Below are positions 19,195-24,352 of a stretch of DNA of 64,000 bases, piece by piece (the first letter of the stretch is position 1; each line of letters begins with the position of its first letter). Under the pieces are notes generated by a model. That model ran no database searches and was not told the origin of the DNA. It was given only the letters and a program-made list of their open reading frames with translations. Made by a program: the position numbers and the translations under genes. The stretch is from an uncultured Lentisphaerales bacterium (GTDB lineage Bacteria > Verrucomicrobiota > Lentisphaeria > JABSQK01 > UBA12247): assembly GCA_943788985.1 (NCBI GenBank), contig CALSSJ010000021.1, positions 32,001-96,000 of the forward strand. Direction: 5' to 3'.

Positions 19195-20295
19195 ATGGCC
19201 CAACAGTCACATATTCTGACCGTAGTCGGCGCACGGCCACAATTCATTAAAGCCGCCGTAATCAGCCGCGCCGTCGCGCAGACCCCCGCCTTGCGCGAGA
19301 CGATCATCCATACCGGCCAACACTATGACGACAACATGTCGCGCGTGTTCTTTGATGAGCTGGAGATTCCCGCCCCAGGCTTCAACCTCGGCGTTGGCAG
19401 CGGCTCGCACGGCGCCCAAACCGGCGAGATGCTGGCACAGCTCGACGCGCTTTACCAGGAGCAGAAGCCGGACTTTGTCCTGCTATATGGCGACACCAAC
19501 TCCACCTTGGCAGGCGCCCTGGCCGCGGCCAAACTGCACATCCCGGTTGCCCACGTCGAGGCAGGCCTACGCTCCTTTAACCGCCGCATGCCCGAAGAAG
19601 TGAATCGCGTCCTGACCGATCACGTCTCGGACCTGCTGTTCTGTCCGACCCAACCTGCCGTAGACAATCTCCTCGCTGAGGGTATTACCAATGGCGTCAG
19701 CCTCGTCGGCGACGTCATGTATGACAGCACCTTGTTCTCGCAGCAGAAAGCTACCGAGCGTATCGAGCGAGTGCTGGGGCCACTGGGCGTCCAGCCCAAG
19801 AGCTATCAGATTGCCACGGTTCACCGCGCCGAGAATGTTGCGGACTCCGCAAAACTCGCTGCGATCTTCGCAGCGATGGACGAGATTTCCACGCCTGAAG
19901 CGCCAACGCTGCTGCCGTTGCATCCAGGCTGTCGCCGCGCGCTCGAAACCCACGGCATCGTGCCAGGCCAGAATGTGCGATTACTAGATCCACAATCCTA
20001 TCTTGACATGGTCGCACTGCTGTCTCAGGCGCGCCTCGCCCTGACCGACTCGGGTGGCCTGCAGAAAGAAGCGGCTATCTTCGATGTGCCCTGTGTGACG
20101 CTGCGAGACGAAACCGAGTGGGTCGAGACTGTCGAAGCAGGTCGAAACTGCGTGGTCGGTGCTGCCACTGTGCGCATCGTCGAAGCCGCCCAAGCCTATC
20201 TGCGCGCCGGCATCCCTCCCTGGACGCCGCCGTACGGATCCGGCAATGCAGGTTCGCTCATCTGCGAGCAATTGGTGGCCACCTGTGCCCGCTGA
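19195..20295 (+). CDS. wecB: UDP-N-acetylglucosamine 2-epimerase (non-hydrolysing)
   Basis: GARPQFIK, HTGQHY, GDTNST, HVEAGLRS and DSGGLQKEA motifs. Confidence 0.95.
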   Translation: MAQQSHILTVVGARPQFIKAAVISRAVAQTPALRETIIHTGQHYDDNMSRVFFDELEIPAPGFNLGVGSGSHGAQTGEMLAQLDALYQEQKPDFVLLYGDTNSTLAGALAAAKLHIPVAHVEAGLRSFNRRMPEEVNRVLTDHVSDLLFCPTQPAVDNLLAEGITNGVSLVGDVMYDSTLFSQQKATERIERVLGPLGVQPKSYQIATVHRAENVADSAKLAAIFAAMDEISTPEAPTLLPLHPGCRRALETHGIVPGQNVRLLDPQSYLDMVALLSQARLALTDSGGLQKEAAIFDVPCVTLRDETEWVETVEAGRNCVVGAATVRIVEAAQAYLRAGIPPWTPPYGSGNAGSLICEQLVATCAR

Positions 20296-21104
20296 CGACT
20301 TGGTTTTTGCGGAGTCCGCAAAACCCAAAAGTAAAAGACGCCGTTAAGCTACGGAATCGCCGCCATCGTGACCGCACAGACCGCACGCTCATCGAAGGCT
20401 ATCGTGAGCTGCGCCAGGCGCTGACGCACGGGATTCGCCCAGAAAGCCTGTTCTACTGCCCGGAGTATTTCTTAGGCGACAACGAGGCTGAACTGCTGCG
20501 GCTTGCGGAGGTCCGCAGGCGCGCGGCTACTGCAGACCGACACACGGGTATTCGATCGGCTTTTCGTGCCGCGAGCGCCCGGACGGCCTGCTCGGCATTG
20601 CCCCACTGATGGGACGCGAGCTGGCTGAGATGCCGACTGGCGACCCGCCGTTTTTACTGATTGCCGAGGCGATCGAGAAGCCGGGAAATCTGGGCGCGAT
20701 TCTGCGTTCAGCCGACGGCGCGGGGGGCAGACGGCGTGATCGTCTGCGATCGCACCACCGACATCAACAATCCAAATGTCGTGCGCGCGAGCATCGGCAC
20801 ACTATTCTCGGTCCCAGTTGCGGAGTCCGCAACCGTCGATGTGCTGGCCTGGCTGCGGGAGCGCGGCATTCGCTCGGTAGCAGCAACACCTGCGGCGACC
20901 AAGCACCACTGGGAAGTGGATATGACCGGACCGATTGCGGTGGTCGTCGGCAGCGAGCAGTACGGGCTCACGGATGCTTGGTTGGAGGCGGCAGATGAAT
21001 CAGTACGCATCCCAATGCTCGGCGCTGCCGACTCCCTGAATGTAGCGACAGCTGCGACCTTGATGGTCTACGAGGTGGTCCGCCAGAGAATGGCACAAGC
21101 TTGA
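20285..21104 (+). CDS. TrmH/SpoU family RNA methyltransferase, several homopolymer frameshifts
   Basis: SPQNPKVK, IEGYRE, EKPGNLGAILRSAD, GSEQYGL and IPMLGAADSLNVA; joined by removing extra bases near 20305, 20510, 20562 and 20724. Confidence 0.85.
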
Positions 21105-21213
21105 TTCGTACCGCGTGCAGCGTGAAAGTGCCATCCGGTGCTACCTGAACCGAGCCCCGTTGATGAAGACGCGACGGGCGTCGTCTAAGGGCGGCTGGCC
21201 GTGGAGGAGGAGT

Positions 21214-21408
21214 GCAACGAAGAAAAGAAGGATGGAACCACTAAATTTCACTAATCTTCACTAACTCCAGGGTCTGGGGTTGAGCGTGTTTTGTTCATTG
21301 TGGCTAGTGGTTCGGATTCTCTTCGGGGGCAGGATGGGCAGCAGGCGCCAGTTTGTTCATTAGTGTGGATTAGTGAAAATTAGTGGTTTGCTCTTCTTTT
21401 CTCTTTGC
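21214..21408. repeat. inverted-repeat element (about 50-bp imperfect arms) downstream of GxxExxY gene
   Basis: Arm 21235-21264 GAACCACTAAATTTCACTAATCTTCACTAA vs 21360-21389 TTAGTGTGGATTAGTGAAAATTAGTGGTTT; outer flanks GAAAAGAAG / CTTCTTTTC are also complementary; degenerate arm at about 21290-21313. Confidence 0.9.
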
Positions 21409-21418
21409 CGCTCAACCA

Positions 21419-21790
21419 TTAGTCGCTGACATATCGTTTCCATTCCAGCTTGCTAGGATTACCAAAGTTGATCAGGTAGCCCACTGGCTTGCCGGTCGCT
21501 TTGAGGTAGTTCAGGATCTGGGCGGCTTCGACCTTGGAGAGGGCTTTCAATGCTTTCAGTTCGACAACAATTCCATCGCTCACATAGAGATCCGGCCGAT
21601 ACCGCTTCTGCAACTCCTGGCCCTTATACACGATCCGCAACTGCGGCTGGGACTCAAAATCGATCTGTCGGCTGCGAAGCTCCAATTCCAAGGCCTCTTG
21701 ATAGACATCTTCAAGGAAACCCGGCCCCAAGGTATTGTAAACCTCGAATGCCGCCGCCATCAGATCATAGCCCTCTTGCTCATACGCCAT
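21419..21790 (-). CDS. GxxExxY protein (PD-(D/E)XK nuclease superfamily)
   Basis: LGPGFLEDVYQEAL (GxxExxY), YRPDL..IVVELKA, QILNYLKATG..GYLINFG; 123 aa from ATG 21790. Confidence 0.95.
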   Translation of the reverse strand: MAYEQEGYDLMAAAFEVYNTLGPGFLEDVYQEALELELRSRQIDFESQPQLRIVYKGQELQKRYRPDLYVSDGIVVELKALKALSKVEAAQILNYLKATGKPVGYLINFGNPSKLEWKRYVSD

Positions 21791-21795
21791 AAAAA

Positions 21796-21825
21796 TTAGT
21801 GCCAATTAGTGAAAATTAGTGGTTC
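21796..21825 (-). repeat. CACTAA x3 repeat copy immediately upstream of the GxxExxY start codon
   Basis: Minus strand GAACCACTAATTTTCACTAATTGGCACTAA-TTTTT-ATG. Confidence 0.92.
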
Positions 21826-21880
21826 GTATTCTGGCTGTAAGCAGGCCGTGAAGGGGGAGCAGGAAGAAGAGAAGAAAATG

Positions 21881-21974
21881 GAACCACTAATTTTCACTAA
21901 TCTTCACTAATGAATCAATCCACATATATCAGGCCCTTCTTACATTAGTGAAGATTAGTGAAAATTAGTGGTTC
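21881..21974. repeat. perfect 32-bp inverted repeat with 30-nt spacer
   Basis: 21881-21912 GAACCACTAATTTTCACTAATCTTCACTAATG is the exact reverse complement of 21943-21974. Confidence 0.97.
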
Positions 21975-22147
21975 GCATTCTGGCTGTGGCTGGCTGTGGC
22001 TGGCTGTGAAGGTGGAGTAGGAAGAGTTTGATAAGTCGAGGCAGCGTAAATGTTCCAGTGGAATACCCTAAGAATGTTAGATCTGCCGTGACATTCAGCC
22101 AGCAGCCCTATCCTTAATTGCCTCCGGCTGTTTGCCAGTGGATATAC

Positions 22148-23095
22148 CTATTCCTTCACTGGGGCGCGAAGCGTGCGGTCGACTGGCCATGGGGCGCCTT
22201 CGGCGATCCACTGCTTAATCAGGGCGCTTTCCTCGGCCCTAAGGGGCTCGCCCTTAGCGGGCATGATGTCGTCGTGGTCGGCGTCGAGAATGGTCAGCAG
22301 ATACAGTGGGCTTTCGTCGGGCTTGCCCGGCACGAGTACGGCATCGAAATCGGGGCCCCGGTCGAGGGCAAAGCGCGTGTGCATGCTGAGGTCGCCCTTG
22401 TCCTTCTCAGGATTGTGGCACTGGAGGCAGCGGCGTTCGAGAAGCGGGGCGATGTCACGGTCAAAATTCACCGTAGCTTGTTCGACGGCTTCGGCCGGTT
22501 CTGAATCCTTTCGCTGGCTTGTGGCGGCAGGCTGTTTCTCCATGACGGCAGCCACGGGCGATGTCTTGACGGCAACGGGTCTGGGCGGTGGCCGCATCAG
22601 ATCGACGCAAAATTTGATGGCAACTGCGAGTAGGATGAGCAGCATGGCCTCGGCAAAGCGCCAGGTCCCGCTCGCTGCAGGCTGCGCCTTGAGCGCCGGC
22701 ATGGCTGGCTTCGGTGCCGCAGACTTTCGGCGTGACTTTAGGACTGTTCTCTTTGCGGTTTTTGCCTTATCGATCTTGTCCACGGCGGTGGGAGGGGCCT
22801 CTTCCGCTACCTCGTACCAGATGTCCTCCCCCTCGTAACCGAGCTGAAAGCGCTCGCTGGGCGCAATCCCGTAGGGGCCAGCGATCTTGTGGGTGTCGAT
22901 GTAGACGCCATTGGTAGAGGCTAGGTCATCGACGAAGATTCTTCCAGAACGTAGAAATATAGTGGCATGGTGCGAGGAAGCGCTAGCGATGCCCACCGTC
23001 AGAGTAGCAGCCTGGTCACGCCCGATTGTGGCGCGATCTTTGCTAAGATCTACAGTGACCTTGGCCCCGCTACCGGCTACTAGCTCGACAATCAA
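22148..23095 (-). CDS. FHA domain - TM - planctomycete cytochrome c domain protein
   Basis: IGRD, SSHHA and STNGVY (FHA); one TM; VNFDRDIAPLLERRCLQCH..VPGKPDESPL..MP..IKQWIAEGAPWP; TTG start overlaps the upstream stop. Confidence 0.88.
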   Translation of the reverse strand: MIVELVAGSGAKVTVDLSKDRATIGRDQAATLTVGIASASSHHATIFLRSGRIFVDDLASTNGVYIDTHKIAGPYGIAPSERFQLGYEGEDIWYEVAEEAPPTAVDKIDKAKTAKRTVLKSRRKSAAPKPAMPALKAQPAASGTWRFAEAMLLILLAVAIKFCVDLMRPPPRPVAVKTSPVAAVMEKQPAATSQRKDSEPAEAVEQATVNFDRDIAPLLERRCLQCHNPEKDKGDLSMHTRFALDRGPDFDAVLVPGKPDESPLYLLTILDADHDDIMPAKGEPLRAEESALIKQWIAEGAPWPVDRTLRAPVKE

Positions 23096-24352
23096 AACAG
23101 CGCGAGAACCGGCTTGCCGCCATTGGCGATGGTGAAGGGGCGACCAGACTTGGAATACAGTTCATGGGCAGGATCGATGCCGACCGCATGCGCGATAGTC
23201 GCGTTAAGATCTTTGACGCTAACGACCTTTTCTGCCACCGTCGCACCTCGTGAGTCGGTCGCACCGTAGACCTGCCCGCCCTGTACTCCGCCGCCTGCAA
23301 GCATGCAGGAAAAGGCCTTCGGATGGTGCCCCCGCCCATTGCCATCGTTAATCTCAGGGGTGCGGCCAAACTCACTTACTAGTACAACGAGGGTGTCTTC
23401 GAGCATGCGACGGCGGTGCAGGTCGTCCAAAAGCGTGCCGAGACCGGCGTCGAGTTGCTGGAGTTGCTTCTCGAGCCGCTCGAAGTTGTCGGTGTGCGTG
23501 TCCCAGCCGCCAAAGGTGACCTCGACAAATTTGATGCCATGCTCGACGAGTCGACGCGCAAGCAGGCAGCCCTGGCCAAAGTTATTCTTGCCATAGCGTT
23601 CGCGGAGGTTCTTGGGCTCACGGGCAATGTCAAACGCTTTGAGCTCGCTGGATTTCATGAGCTTCACGGCATCTTCGTAGGCCTGGGCGTACCCGTCCAC
23701 CTGGCGACTCTCGAAGCGGGAGTCGAACTTTGTGTTCAGGGTGCGAAGCAGCTGCATGCGATGCTCGAAGGTCCCTTCGTCCACGTGTGGCGGCGGCGAG
23801 ATGTTACTGAGGCCGGCTTCTGCGCGACTGATGCGCAGTGGTTCAAACTCTGGCTCGAAGAAGCCAGCGCCGATCGGATTACGAGCCCCAATATTGATGT
23901 TTCCCGGTAAGGTCTCGCTGTTCTTCCCAGAGAGTTTGAGCGCCCAGGCCCCCGAGTCCCGGATGCTGAATGGTGCCGAGCATTGGATAGCTGGTGCGCA
24001 TGAAATAGGAGCCACGCTCATGGCTGCCTTCCTTGGAGGTCATCGACCGGATTATCGCTGCGTGCTGCAGTTGTCGCGCAAGCAAGGGCAGTCGATCCGA
24101 GATCCGCTCGCCAGTGATGGAGGTGCGCATGGGAGCAAACTCGCCAGCAACCTCTTTATCCTGCTTGGGGTCTAGCGTGTCGAGATGGCTCATGCCGCCA
24201 GCCATGTACAGGTAGATGACGCGCTTGGCCTTTCCCCCGTGATCGGCCGCCTGCGCGGAAAAGCTGGAGAACAAGCCCACTCCTAGGCAGGCTTGGGCCA
24301 TGCCAGTAAGAAACTCGCGTCGGTCCAAGTCAGATGCTTTGGTTATATTCAT
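23092..24352 (-). CDS. DUF1501 domain protein with Tat-like leader, frameshift near 23950
   Basis: RREFL, YMAGGMSHLDTLDPK, FGQGCLLARRLVEHG, GWDTH and SEFGRTP motifs. Confidence 0.9.

Follow-up and report, generated by a model that had tools for sequence, protein, structure and literature searches.

What is a small nuclease gene doing inside a cluster of evenly spaced repeats? The question is raised by a 64,000-nucleotide stretch of DNA (the window) from an uncultured Lentisphaerales bacterium (contig CALSSJ010000021.1, positions 32,001 to 96,000). Within it, an AT-rich segment at 21197–22025, flanked by convergent genes, contains a whole cluster of repeat arrays together with a single open reading frame (ORF). 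This ORF is an intact, 123-residue gene of the GxxExxY family (21419–21790, minus strand). A preliminary description of the window had proposed that gene and repeats form a repeat-recognising or repeat-propagating system comparable to repetitive extragenic palindromes (REPs) and the REP-associated tyrosine transposases (RAYTs). From sequence comparisons we hold, with moderate confidence, that the cluster consists of one copy with the gene, together with derivatives that lack it, of a widespread and hitherto undescribed element in which a nuclease is accompanied by its cognate inverted heptamer arrays. A literature search, whose coverage excluded subscription journals, returned no description of this gene–array layout.

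The pattern CACTAA-N4-CACTAA-N4-CACTAA occurs exactly at 21239 (+), 21360 (−), 21796 (−), 21885 (+) and 21945 (−) and nowhere else in the 64 kb. Because 100 dinucleotide-preserving shuffles of the window gave zero matches, chance clustering was rejected. The hexamers CACTAA/TTAGTG are likewise concentrated, with 15 of the 19 in the window lying within the cluster. A sixth, decayed copy near 21290–21313 was confirmed by TAGTGGTTCGGATTCT, which equals the flank of two other copies. The preliminary description had therefore located all six copies correctly, and it was also right that the family is confined to the cluster and that these AT-rich repeats stand on a GC-rich background (local GC content of 32–48% vs 58.7% for the whole window).

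We scanned one genome per GTDB species for ACCACTAA-N4-CACTAA-N4-CACTAA and obtained at least 124 loci, three overlapping others. The counts given here and below for such loci refer to the matches listed, and their taxonomy was taken from record titles. The loci comprise 72 of Verrucomicrobiota type, 12 from Planctomycetota, 9 from Lentisphaerota, 8 from Bacteroidota, 7 from Kiritimatiellota, 3 from Nitrospinia, 2 from one Nitrosomonas contig, 1 each from Spirochaetales, Desulfonatronospira and Orenia, and 8 unclassified. The matches listed do not include the source genome of the window, an absence to which no weight attaches. Since the loci span several phyla, the CACTAAT repeat is not a REP peculiar to one genome. 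In 146 distinct copies, an A precedes AC in 95%, and a T follows each hexamer in 74–88%, while the three remaining spacer letters are near random. The repeat unit is thus the heptamer CACTAAT with a period of 10 bases and AAC in front. Convergent pairs numbered 50, their loops measuring 4–410 nt and in 44 cases no more than 148 nt. Spacer positions match between the two arms in 197 of 400 cases, and the constant T accounts for two of every eight positions, so the true spacers are barely complementary. On this point the preliminary description, which had read the family as a genome-specific REP-like palindrome, gives way to a heptamer array that crosses phyla. Folded as single strands, the pairs form 7-bp helices split by 3×3 internal loops, with z-scores of −4.7 to −13. 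Three copies of one heptamer, each a helical turn from the next, are more suggestive of a protein that reads one face of the DNA than of a plain hairpin.

Gene-less inverted pairs in intergenic DNA make up most of the copies and are about ten times commoner than pairs with a gene. Most of these hairpins are solitary and lie between housekeeping genes. Some assemblies hold several loci each, which agrees with the earlier expectation of dispersed intergenic inverted pairs. By crude ORF calls, none of the 77 loci with long flanks has its array inside a long ORF. Among 53 classifiable loci, 39 lie between co-directional, 8 between divergent and 6 between convergent genes. Further array types in the same loci follow the grammar (A/T)AAC-C(A/G)C-NN-A-N with a period of 9–11. 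Three CACTAAT units at period 10 place TAA in all three frames and, on the other strand, TAG in all three. This two-way, three-frame stop is not general, because most other heptamers (CACGGAT, CACAGAG) carry no stop codons, and CACTGAT supplies TGA on one strand only. At the start of one contig from a Nitrosomonas metagenome-assembled genome (MAG) (L003, 1–720), a unit of about 174 bp recurs in tandem three or more times; in each hairpin a CGCTAAT ×3 arm pairs with an ATTCGCG ×3 arm, so that the two arms differ in heptamer. In Rfam searches, the window region and 13 loci yielded only sub-threshold generic hairpin matches and an unrelated S-adenosylmethionine (SAM) riboswitch. The latter is a SAM-alpha riboswitch (RF00521, 38.1 bits, above the gathering score) at L126 2066–2142, about 200 nt downstream of a Gemmatirosa GxxExxY gene.

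The CACTAAT loci had been picked by DNA motif alone. When we searched them with tblastn and a hidden Markov model, 10 of the 124 contained GxxExxY sequence. Complete arm–gene–arm units are present in three phyla, in Terrimicrobiaceae (L001), Ancylomarina of the Bacteroidota (L049), Opitutaceae (L098) and Kiritimatiellales (L100). All four share one layout: AAC-(CACTAAT-N3)×3, 10–30 nt, the ORF, 5–25 nt and the inverted array. Two further loci (L020 and L120) carry the gene with an array on one side before the locus ends. The GxxExxY proteins of CACTAAT loci are 49–64% identical pairwise, the window protein being 49–61% identical to the others. GxxExxY is the only gene family found between CACTAAT arms; other array-adjacent ORFs are ordinary neighbours beyond the hairpin. 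In L091, an N-terminus (MLKQEGY) is fused to the C-terminal 27 residues within a hairpin, and L049 holds C-terminal GxxExxY fragments, each followed by an array. Judged by these remnants, at least some gene-less hairpins are gutted copies of the gene.

The association also holds when the search starts from the protein. A protein-only search of PLSDB returned 8 records and another query added one copy, for 9 plasmid copies in total. Within about 60–120 nt of each of the 9 genes stand repeats that follow the same grammar but use other heptamers (CACAGAG, CACGGAT, CGCGGAT, CGCGAAG). The Bacteroides copy (L128) has CACAGAG-type arms of 30 nt that are 90% complementary, the Bernardetia copy (L132) has inverted CACAGAG arms of 28 nt, and the Sphingomonas copy (L130) has CACGCGAAG / CGCGAAG arms of 25 nt with 92% complementarity. 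In Treponema (L125), one CACACGGATTCG unit stands on each side in inverted orientation. One Gemmatirosa copy (L126) has a CGCGGAT hairpin downstream only, and a frameshifted Gemmatirosa copy (L134) has complete CGCAGAG hairpins on both sides. Direct copies flank the genes of Fusobacteria (L129, 52 nt) and Persicobacter (L127, 40 nt, grammar doubtful), and the Prevotella gene (L131) has complex ACAAATC arrays. Among the 8 copies of the first search, four are bracketed by clean inverted repeats of 16–30 nt, one by complex arrays, two by direct copies and one by a downstream hairpin only. A strict automatic rule demanding inverted, periodic 6-mers in the flanks selected 8 of 15 GxxExxY genes, whereas among 669 control ORFs of these loci it selected 17. 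Arrays lie within about 120 nt of the gene in all 16 GxxExxY genes looked at.

The proteins carry a further trace of the arrays. The sequence TR(K/N)ISVN forms the C-terminal end of 48 of the 120 closest homologues and is read as translation into an ATCAGTG array. Array-encoded periodic peptides occur at a terminus in about 18 of 149 diverse representatives. Many close homologues lie on very short contigs of 0.5–3 kb, as expected if a repeated gene with its arrays breaks short-read assemblies. Such arrays probably break assemblies more generally and create spurious ORF extensions. On these sequence comparisons, the link between array and gene is real, non-random and general.

Heptamer type tracks the nuclease clade, not host taxonomy. 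The tree, built on 15 proteins, has a split supported at 90/88 between proteins with AG-ending heptamers (L035, L128, L130 and L132, plus the long-branch L131) and those with AT-ending ones. This split cuts across host phyla, with an Opitutaceae protein grouping with Bacteroides and the Ancylomarina protein grouping with those of the Planctomycetes–Verrucomicrobia–Chlamydiae (PVC) group. The frameshifted L134 copy was best found by the Bacteroides query, consistent with its AG-type word. The expectation that homologues from other phyla would be flanked by repeats of the same grammar, co-varying with protein clade, is thus borne out at the scale of this tree.

Comparisons of orthologous sites point to both movement and persistence. 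In Sphingomonas parapaucimobilis (L130), the gene and its arms lie between fabD and fabG; in S. paeninsulae (L133), fabD and fabG are 31 nt apart with no array, which constitutes an empty site. No target-site duplication is visible at L001, L098, L100 or L130. The purS–purQ spacer is occupied by arm, gene and arm in L001 and by a single arm in L117. Each time the first heptamer contains the purS stop codon, AAC CAC TAA reading N H stop (L001, 3003–3008; L117, 303–308), and this array-supplied stop may be the reason why the lone arm was kept in L117. At one divergent intergenic site shared by four Opitutales genomes, AAAC and all 21 heptamer letters are kept, with the spacers varying and the partner arm decaying. 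Upstream of nuoG in two genomes, both arms are kept and the loops are unrelated. With heptamers unchanged and spacers or loops differing between orthologous sites, the arms are either constrained or being homogenised.

The window protein is a full-length member of its family. It matches Pfam PF13366 (PDDEXK_3) at 1e-42 and 145.6 bits (cut-off 22) over profile positions 3–116 of 117, and TIGR04256 (GxxExxY) at 7e-42 and 142.5 bits (cut-off 35). PDDEXK_3 is its sole Pfam match, and the search revealed no HUH Y1 transposase and no transposase domain. The RPD (D67) and ELK (E77, K79) motifs are present, and G22, G24, E27, Y30, E37, D67, E77, K79, Q91, Y95, G104 and N108 are invariant in 35 sequences. 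An AlphaFold2 model built on the 35-sequence alignment has a pLDDT of 95.2 and an alpha-beta core. Its nearest solved folds in Foldseek are Cas4 SSO0001, lambda exonuclease, 3ijm and Hjc, at TM-scores of 0.4–0.6. These are generic PD-(D/E)XK matches, with no specific subfamily singled out. The model thus indicates that the window protein is a minimal PD-(D/E)XK core. The preliminary description had read an intact GxxExxY ORF with an RPD..ELK motif, and the superfamily membership, from the translation, and both readings stand. A sequence search of the PDB, the PADLOC and PHROGs profile libraries and a tblastn search of 50,697 phage records gave no match for the protein.

GxxExxY, a family that we take to have many clades and many paralogues per genome, comprises 15,002 clusters at 50% identity (E 0.001 or better). 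Three tandem two-domain forms (P0123, P0138 and P0141; 250–293 residues) have E-x-K in the first domain only and, judged by sequence, look like covalent pseudo-dimers with one active site. They therefore hint at a dimeric working unit. In a separate 635-residue protein (P0159), UvrD/PcrA-like helicase sequence continues into a GxxExxY C-terminal part (residues 531–629), reflecting either an element inserted at the end of a helicase gene or a chimera of assembly or gene calling. The function of GxxExxY is listed as ‘Unknown’ in a table of a review (PMC3424549).

Given these features, we hypothesized that the nuclease, which is probably dimeric or a higher oligomer, would bind the phased heptamers of its own arms and cut at or near them. 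Copying by host repair or replication would then bring the unit, with or without its gene, to new intergenic sites, and internal deletions of the unit would leave gene-less hairpins. To our knowledge, no strand-transfer chemistry has been described for a 123-residue hydrolytic nuclease, and for this reason we liken the spread to homing more than to transposition. A more tentative proposal, which we regard as possible though somewhat doubtful, is that a very large class of bacterial repeat elements, hitherto unrecognised, is driven by GxxExxY nucleases, each clade of which would read its own heptamer, three per arm at one-turn spacing.

Several observations weigh against the reading as a nuclease with cognate arrays. 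The gene in the window is flanked by two same-orientation arrays instead of an inverted pair, as in L127 and L129. As for the REP/RAYT-like layout in the preliminary description, inverted repeats that both flank the gene and are dispersed were seen in other genomes and phyla; in the window, the inverted partners of the gene-flanking arrays stand further out. The two arms of one hairpin may differ in heptamer, as where CGCTAAT faces CGCGAAT. Sample sizes are small, with 15 proteins in the tree and a single empty site, and at fabD–fabG the flanks, at only 74% identity, leave an exact junction or target-site duplication unreadable. Where arrays stay at one site across genera, long vertical persistence or host use is a better fit than frequent movement. 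Co-variation of heptamer and protein would also be expected if gene and arrays simply travel together. Finally, arrays part other small modules in an Anammoxibacter MAG (L005, L017 and L052), the Nitrosomonas MAG (L003) and ‘bacterium ELA110’ (L038). These modules include FitA-PIN, HicA-HicB, MazF, TacA-GNAT, ParD, DUF6290-ParE, DUF2442 and DUF5678, and in L003 ParE, DUF2442 and GxxExxY all lie beside the same hairpins. Because arrays part toxin–antitoxin cassettes in three genomes, recognition by the nuclease is putative and the co-variation possibly reflects co-travel. The proposal of a repeat-recognising or repeat-propagating system is accordingly left qualified, with comparative tests mostly positive and the cassettes standing against it. 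The toxin–antitoxin islands may simply be permissive landing sites. In one of them (L017, 636–5870), two Cas6 genes bound a 3.6-kb stretch of MazF and TacA-GNAT modules and heptamer arrays.

These islands give rise to the strongest alternative, which we nevertheless consider unlikely: the arrays would be cassette-boundary recombination sites, similar to the attC sites of integrons, for a recombinase acting in trans, and GxxExxY would be the commonest small cargo beside toxin–antitoxin modules. L005, L017 and L003 do carry one small module per pair of array clusters, GxxExxY among them, and the cargo genes leave no room for promoters and are often co-directional with their neighbours. In L005, the arms occur in one orientation only, in tandem clusters of several heptamer types. 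The AAC...GTT ends also resemble the R boxes of attC, in whose consensus R'' RYYYAAC pairs with R' GTTRRRY, IntI being encoded nearby or elsewhere in the genome. On the other hand, the two arms do not complement each other at the base just outside AAC, and the window copies, which end in GTTCGCA, GTTCGTA, GTTCCAT and GTTTGCT, do not fit GTTRRRY. The gene-between-arms layout being seen for GxxExxY only, the GxxExxY identity of the hairpin remnants and the arrays beside every one of the 16 genes also argue against mere cargo. So does the solitary position of most hairpins between housekeeping genes, outside cassette arrays. The 42 ORFs scanned, drawn from 7 of the at least 124 loci, included no integrase, and blastn of the window hairpin against 72,556 plasmids, mobile integrons included, gave no match.

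A second alternative, distinctly less probable, is that the host retains the arrays as sites for protein binding, whether operators, nucleoid-structuring sites or insulators, with GxxExxY as their binder and its nuclease activity reduced or regulated. Such a domesticated, vertically kept system has been proposed for REPIN/RAYT. The conservation described above speaks for this alternative: the invariant AAAC and three heptamers in four Opitutales genomes, with varying spacers and a decaying partner arm, and the conserved arms but not loop upstream of nuoG. The 10-base phasing would set the sites on one helix face, and the tandem two-domain proteins retain E-x-K in the first domain only. In the single-domain family, however, none of the catalytic residues varies. 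The element is also patchily distributed across phyla, one copy occupies an operon spacer found empty in a relative, and pseudogenised and truncated copies exist, all of which speaks against host-kept sites.

Very improbable, finally, is an element acting as RNA, in which hairpins would stabilise, terminate or process transcripts and the nuclease would be an RNA endonuclease for them: the folding into 7-bp helices and the stop codons that CACTAAT ×3 places in all frames, including that of purS in L001 and L117, would suit it, but neither the window region nor the 13 loci match an Rfam family, the spacers are not complementary, one-orientation arms occur in tandem, most other heptamer types lack stop codons, and the nearest folds are the DNA nucleases Cas4, lambda exonuclease and Hjc. 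Other candidates were rejected. A promoter or operator serving the window gene only does not agree with arrays on both sides of the gene and also without genes, and the grammar does not fit CRISPR, DnaA boxes or parS.

If the nuclease does read its arrays, an orphan family would find its explanation in a simple protein-to-heptamer code, which would also provide natural sequence-specific nucleases. An element able to move with nothing more than a 120-residue hydrolytic PD-(D/E)XK enzyme would itself be of a new kind. GxxExxY is among the larger protein families without an assigned function, and a defined DNA grammar gives it a concrete hypothesis. The link between gene and array would also explain a frequent intergenic feature of PVC and Bacteroidota genomes. 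Under any model, heptamers strictly kept amid drifting spacers represent a constraint on non-coding DNA that has to be explained.

The window locus itself can now be described along its length. The cluster opens with outer flank ‘L’ (21197–21234, +), a window-specific repeat consisting of GGCCGTG, a purine-rich run and G. It directly precedes array 1 (21235–21264, +), an exact match that reads GAAC-CACTAA-ATTT-CACTAA-TCTT-CACTAA. The flank word GGCCGTGRAGGRGGAG matches at 21197, 21844 and 22002, vs 0.18 matches expected. The decayed array copy (21290–21313, −; repeat family D3) is followed by a GTTCGGATTCT flank. Array 2 (21360–21389, −, exact match) lies 29 nt past the stop codon of the gene in the same orientation as array 3, and next to it stands an inverted copy of the purine-rich flank ‘L’ (21390–21413, −), identified through 58-nt arms that are 81% complementary (I1). 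The nuclease gene follows, assigned by its profile scores, the catalytic set E37, D67, E77 and K79, the AlphaFold2 model and Foldseek. Array 3 (21796–21825, −, exact match) ends 5 nt upstream of the ATG and abuts the start codon as CACTAAT-TTTT-ATG. Repeat comparison places outer flank ‘R’ (GTTCGTATTCTGGCTGT...) and a second copy of flank ‘L’ at 21826–21880 (+). The gene-less hairpin (21881–21974) comprises array 4 (+), a 30-nt loop and array 5 (−). Its arms (21881–21912 and 21943–21974) are complementary at 32 of 32 positions, and as single-stranded DNA it folds at −32.6 kcal/mol (z = −12.5). The cluster closes with flank ‘R’ containing CTGGCTGTGG ×3 and a truncated copy of flank ‘L’ (21975–22025, +), also recognised by repeat comparison. 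On the minus strand, flank ‘R’ forms a second phased heptamer array, CACAGCC ×3 with period 10.

Read on the strand of the gene, the order is the perfect hairpin, 55 nt, the array before the ATG and the gene, then 29 nt, the same-orientation array, the decayed copy and the inverted array. The window-specific outer flanks occur two to three times in the cluster. The perfect 32-bp pair points to a recent event. The nested arrays, for their part, are suggestive of repeated insertion or of local duplication at a single permissive site, which lies between the convergent genes. A sigma-70 promoter scan gave 0 sites, and the sole terminator-like site is at chance level. The convergent neighbours, recognised as such in the preliminary description, are a SpoU-type methylase gene ending at 21104 (+) on the left and a gene for an FHA + PSCyt1 protein ending at 22148 (−) on the right. 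The SpoU/TrmH-type methylase gene (20118–21104, +) spans at least three frames, with one shift at a G run near 20730, and a DUF1501 gene (23092–24352, −) is broken into two overlapping ORFs. These frame breaks are either homopolymer indel errors of the assembly or marks of pseudogenes; the GxxExxY gene is intact.

Compared with known systems, the proposed element combines familiar features in an unfamiliar way. Like integron cassettes, it involves small promoterless ORFs, including toxin–antitoxin modules, parted by structured AAC...GTT repeats. It differs from attC in departing from the R-box consensus, in having three identical boxes per arm, in carrying GxxExxY inside the hairpin and in its mostly solitary hairpins, and from integrons in the lack of an integrase among the ORFs scanned from 7 loci. 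With miniature inverted-repeat transposable elements and insertion sequences it shares terminal inverted repeats and gene-less copies arising through internal deletion, as in L091 and L049. Unlike them, it has no DDE, serine or tyrosine transposase and no target-site duplication seen, and it measures only about 450 bp, with a 123-residue protein. Homing endonuclease genes of the PD-(D/E)XK type, such as I-Ssp6803I, whether free-standing or carried by introns, offer another parallel. These too are small selfish nuclease genes, present or absent at conserved sites, that would need host repair; they differ from the element in its inverted arrays and dispersed gene-less copies and in its having no intron or intein and no single conserved target gene.

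A further likeness is to REP/RAYT systems (REPtron, REPIN). In these, as here, a lone nuclease gene lies within inverted short repeats, gene-less intergenic pairs are far more numerous, and some copies persist at one site across species. A REP is described in PMC3733652 as an imperfect palindrome of 20–40 bp with a GTAG or CGTC head. By that description the arms differ, each consisting of AAC and three phased direct heptamers, in which neither an internal palindrome nor GTAG or CGTC occurs. The element also differs in using one heptamer type across many phyla, and its enzyme is of the PD-(D/E)XK type, whereas RAYT is an HUH Y1 transposase. By analogy, we think it about evenly balanced that the element is a counterpart of REP/RAYT built on the PD-(D/E)XK fold, which would extend the REP/RAYT idea to an unrelated enzyme fold.

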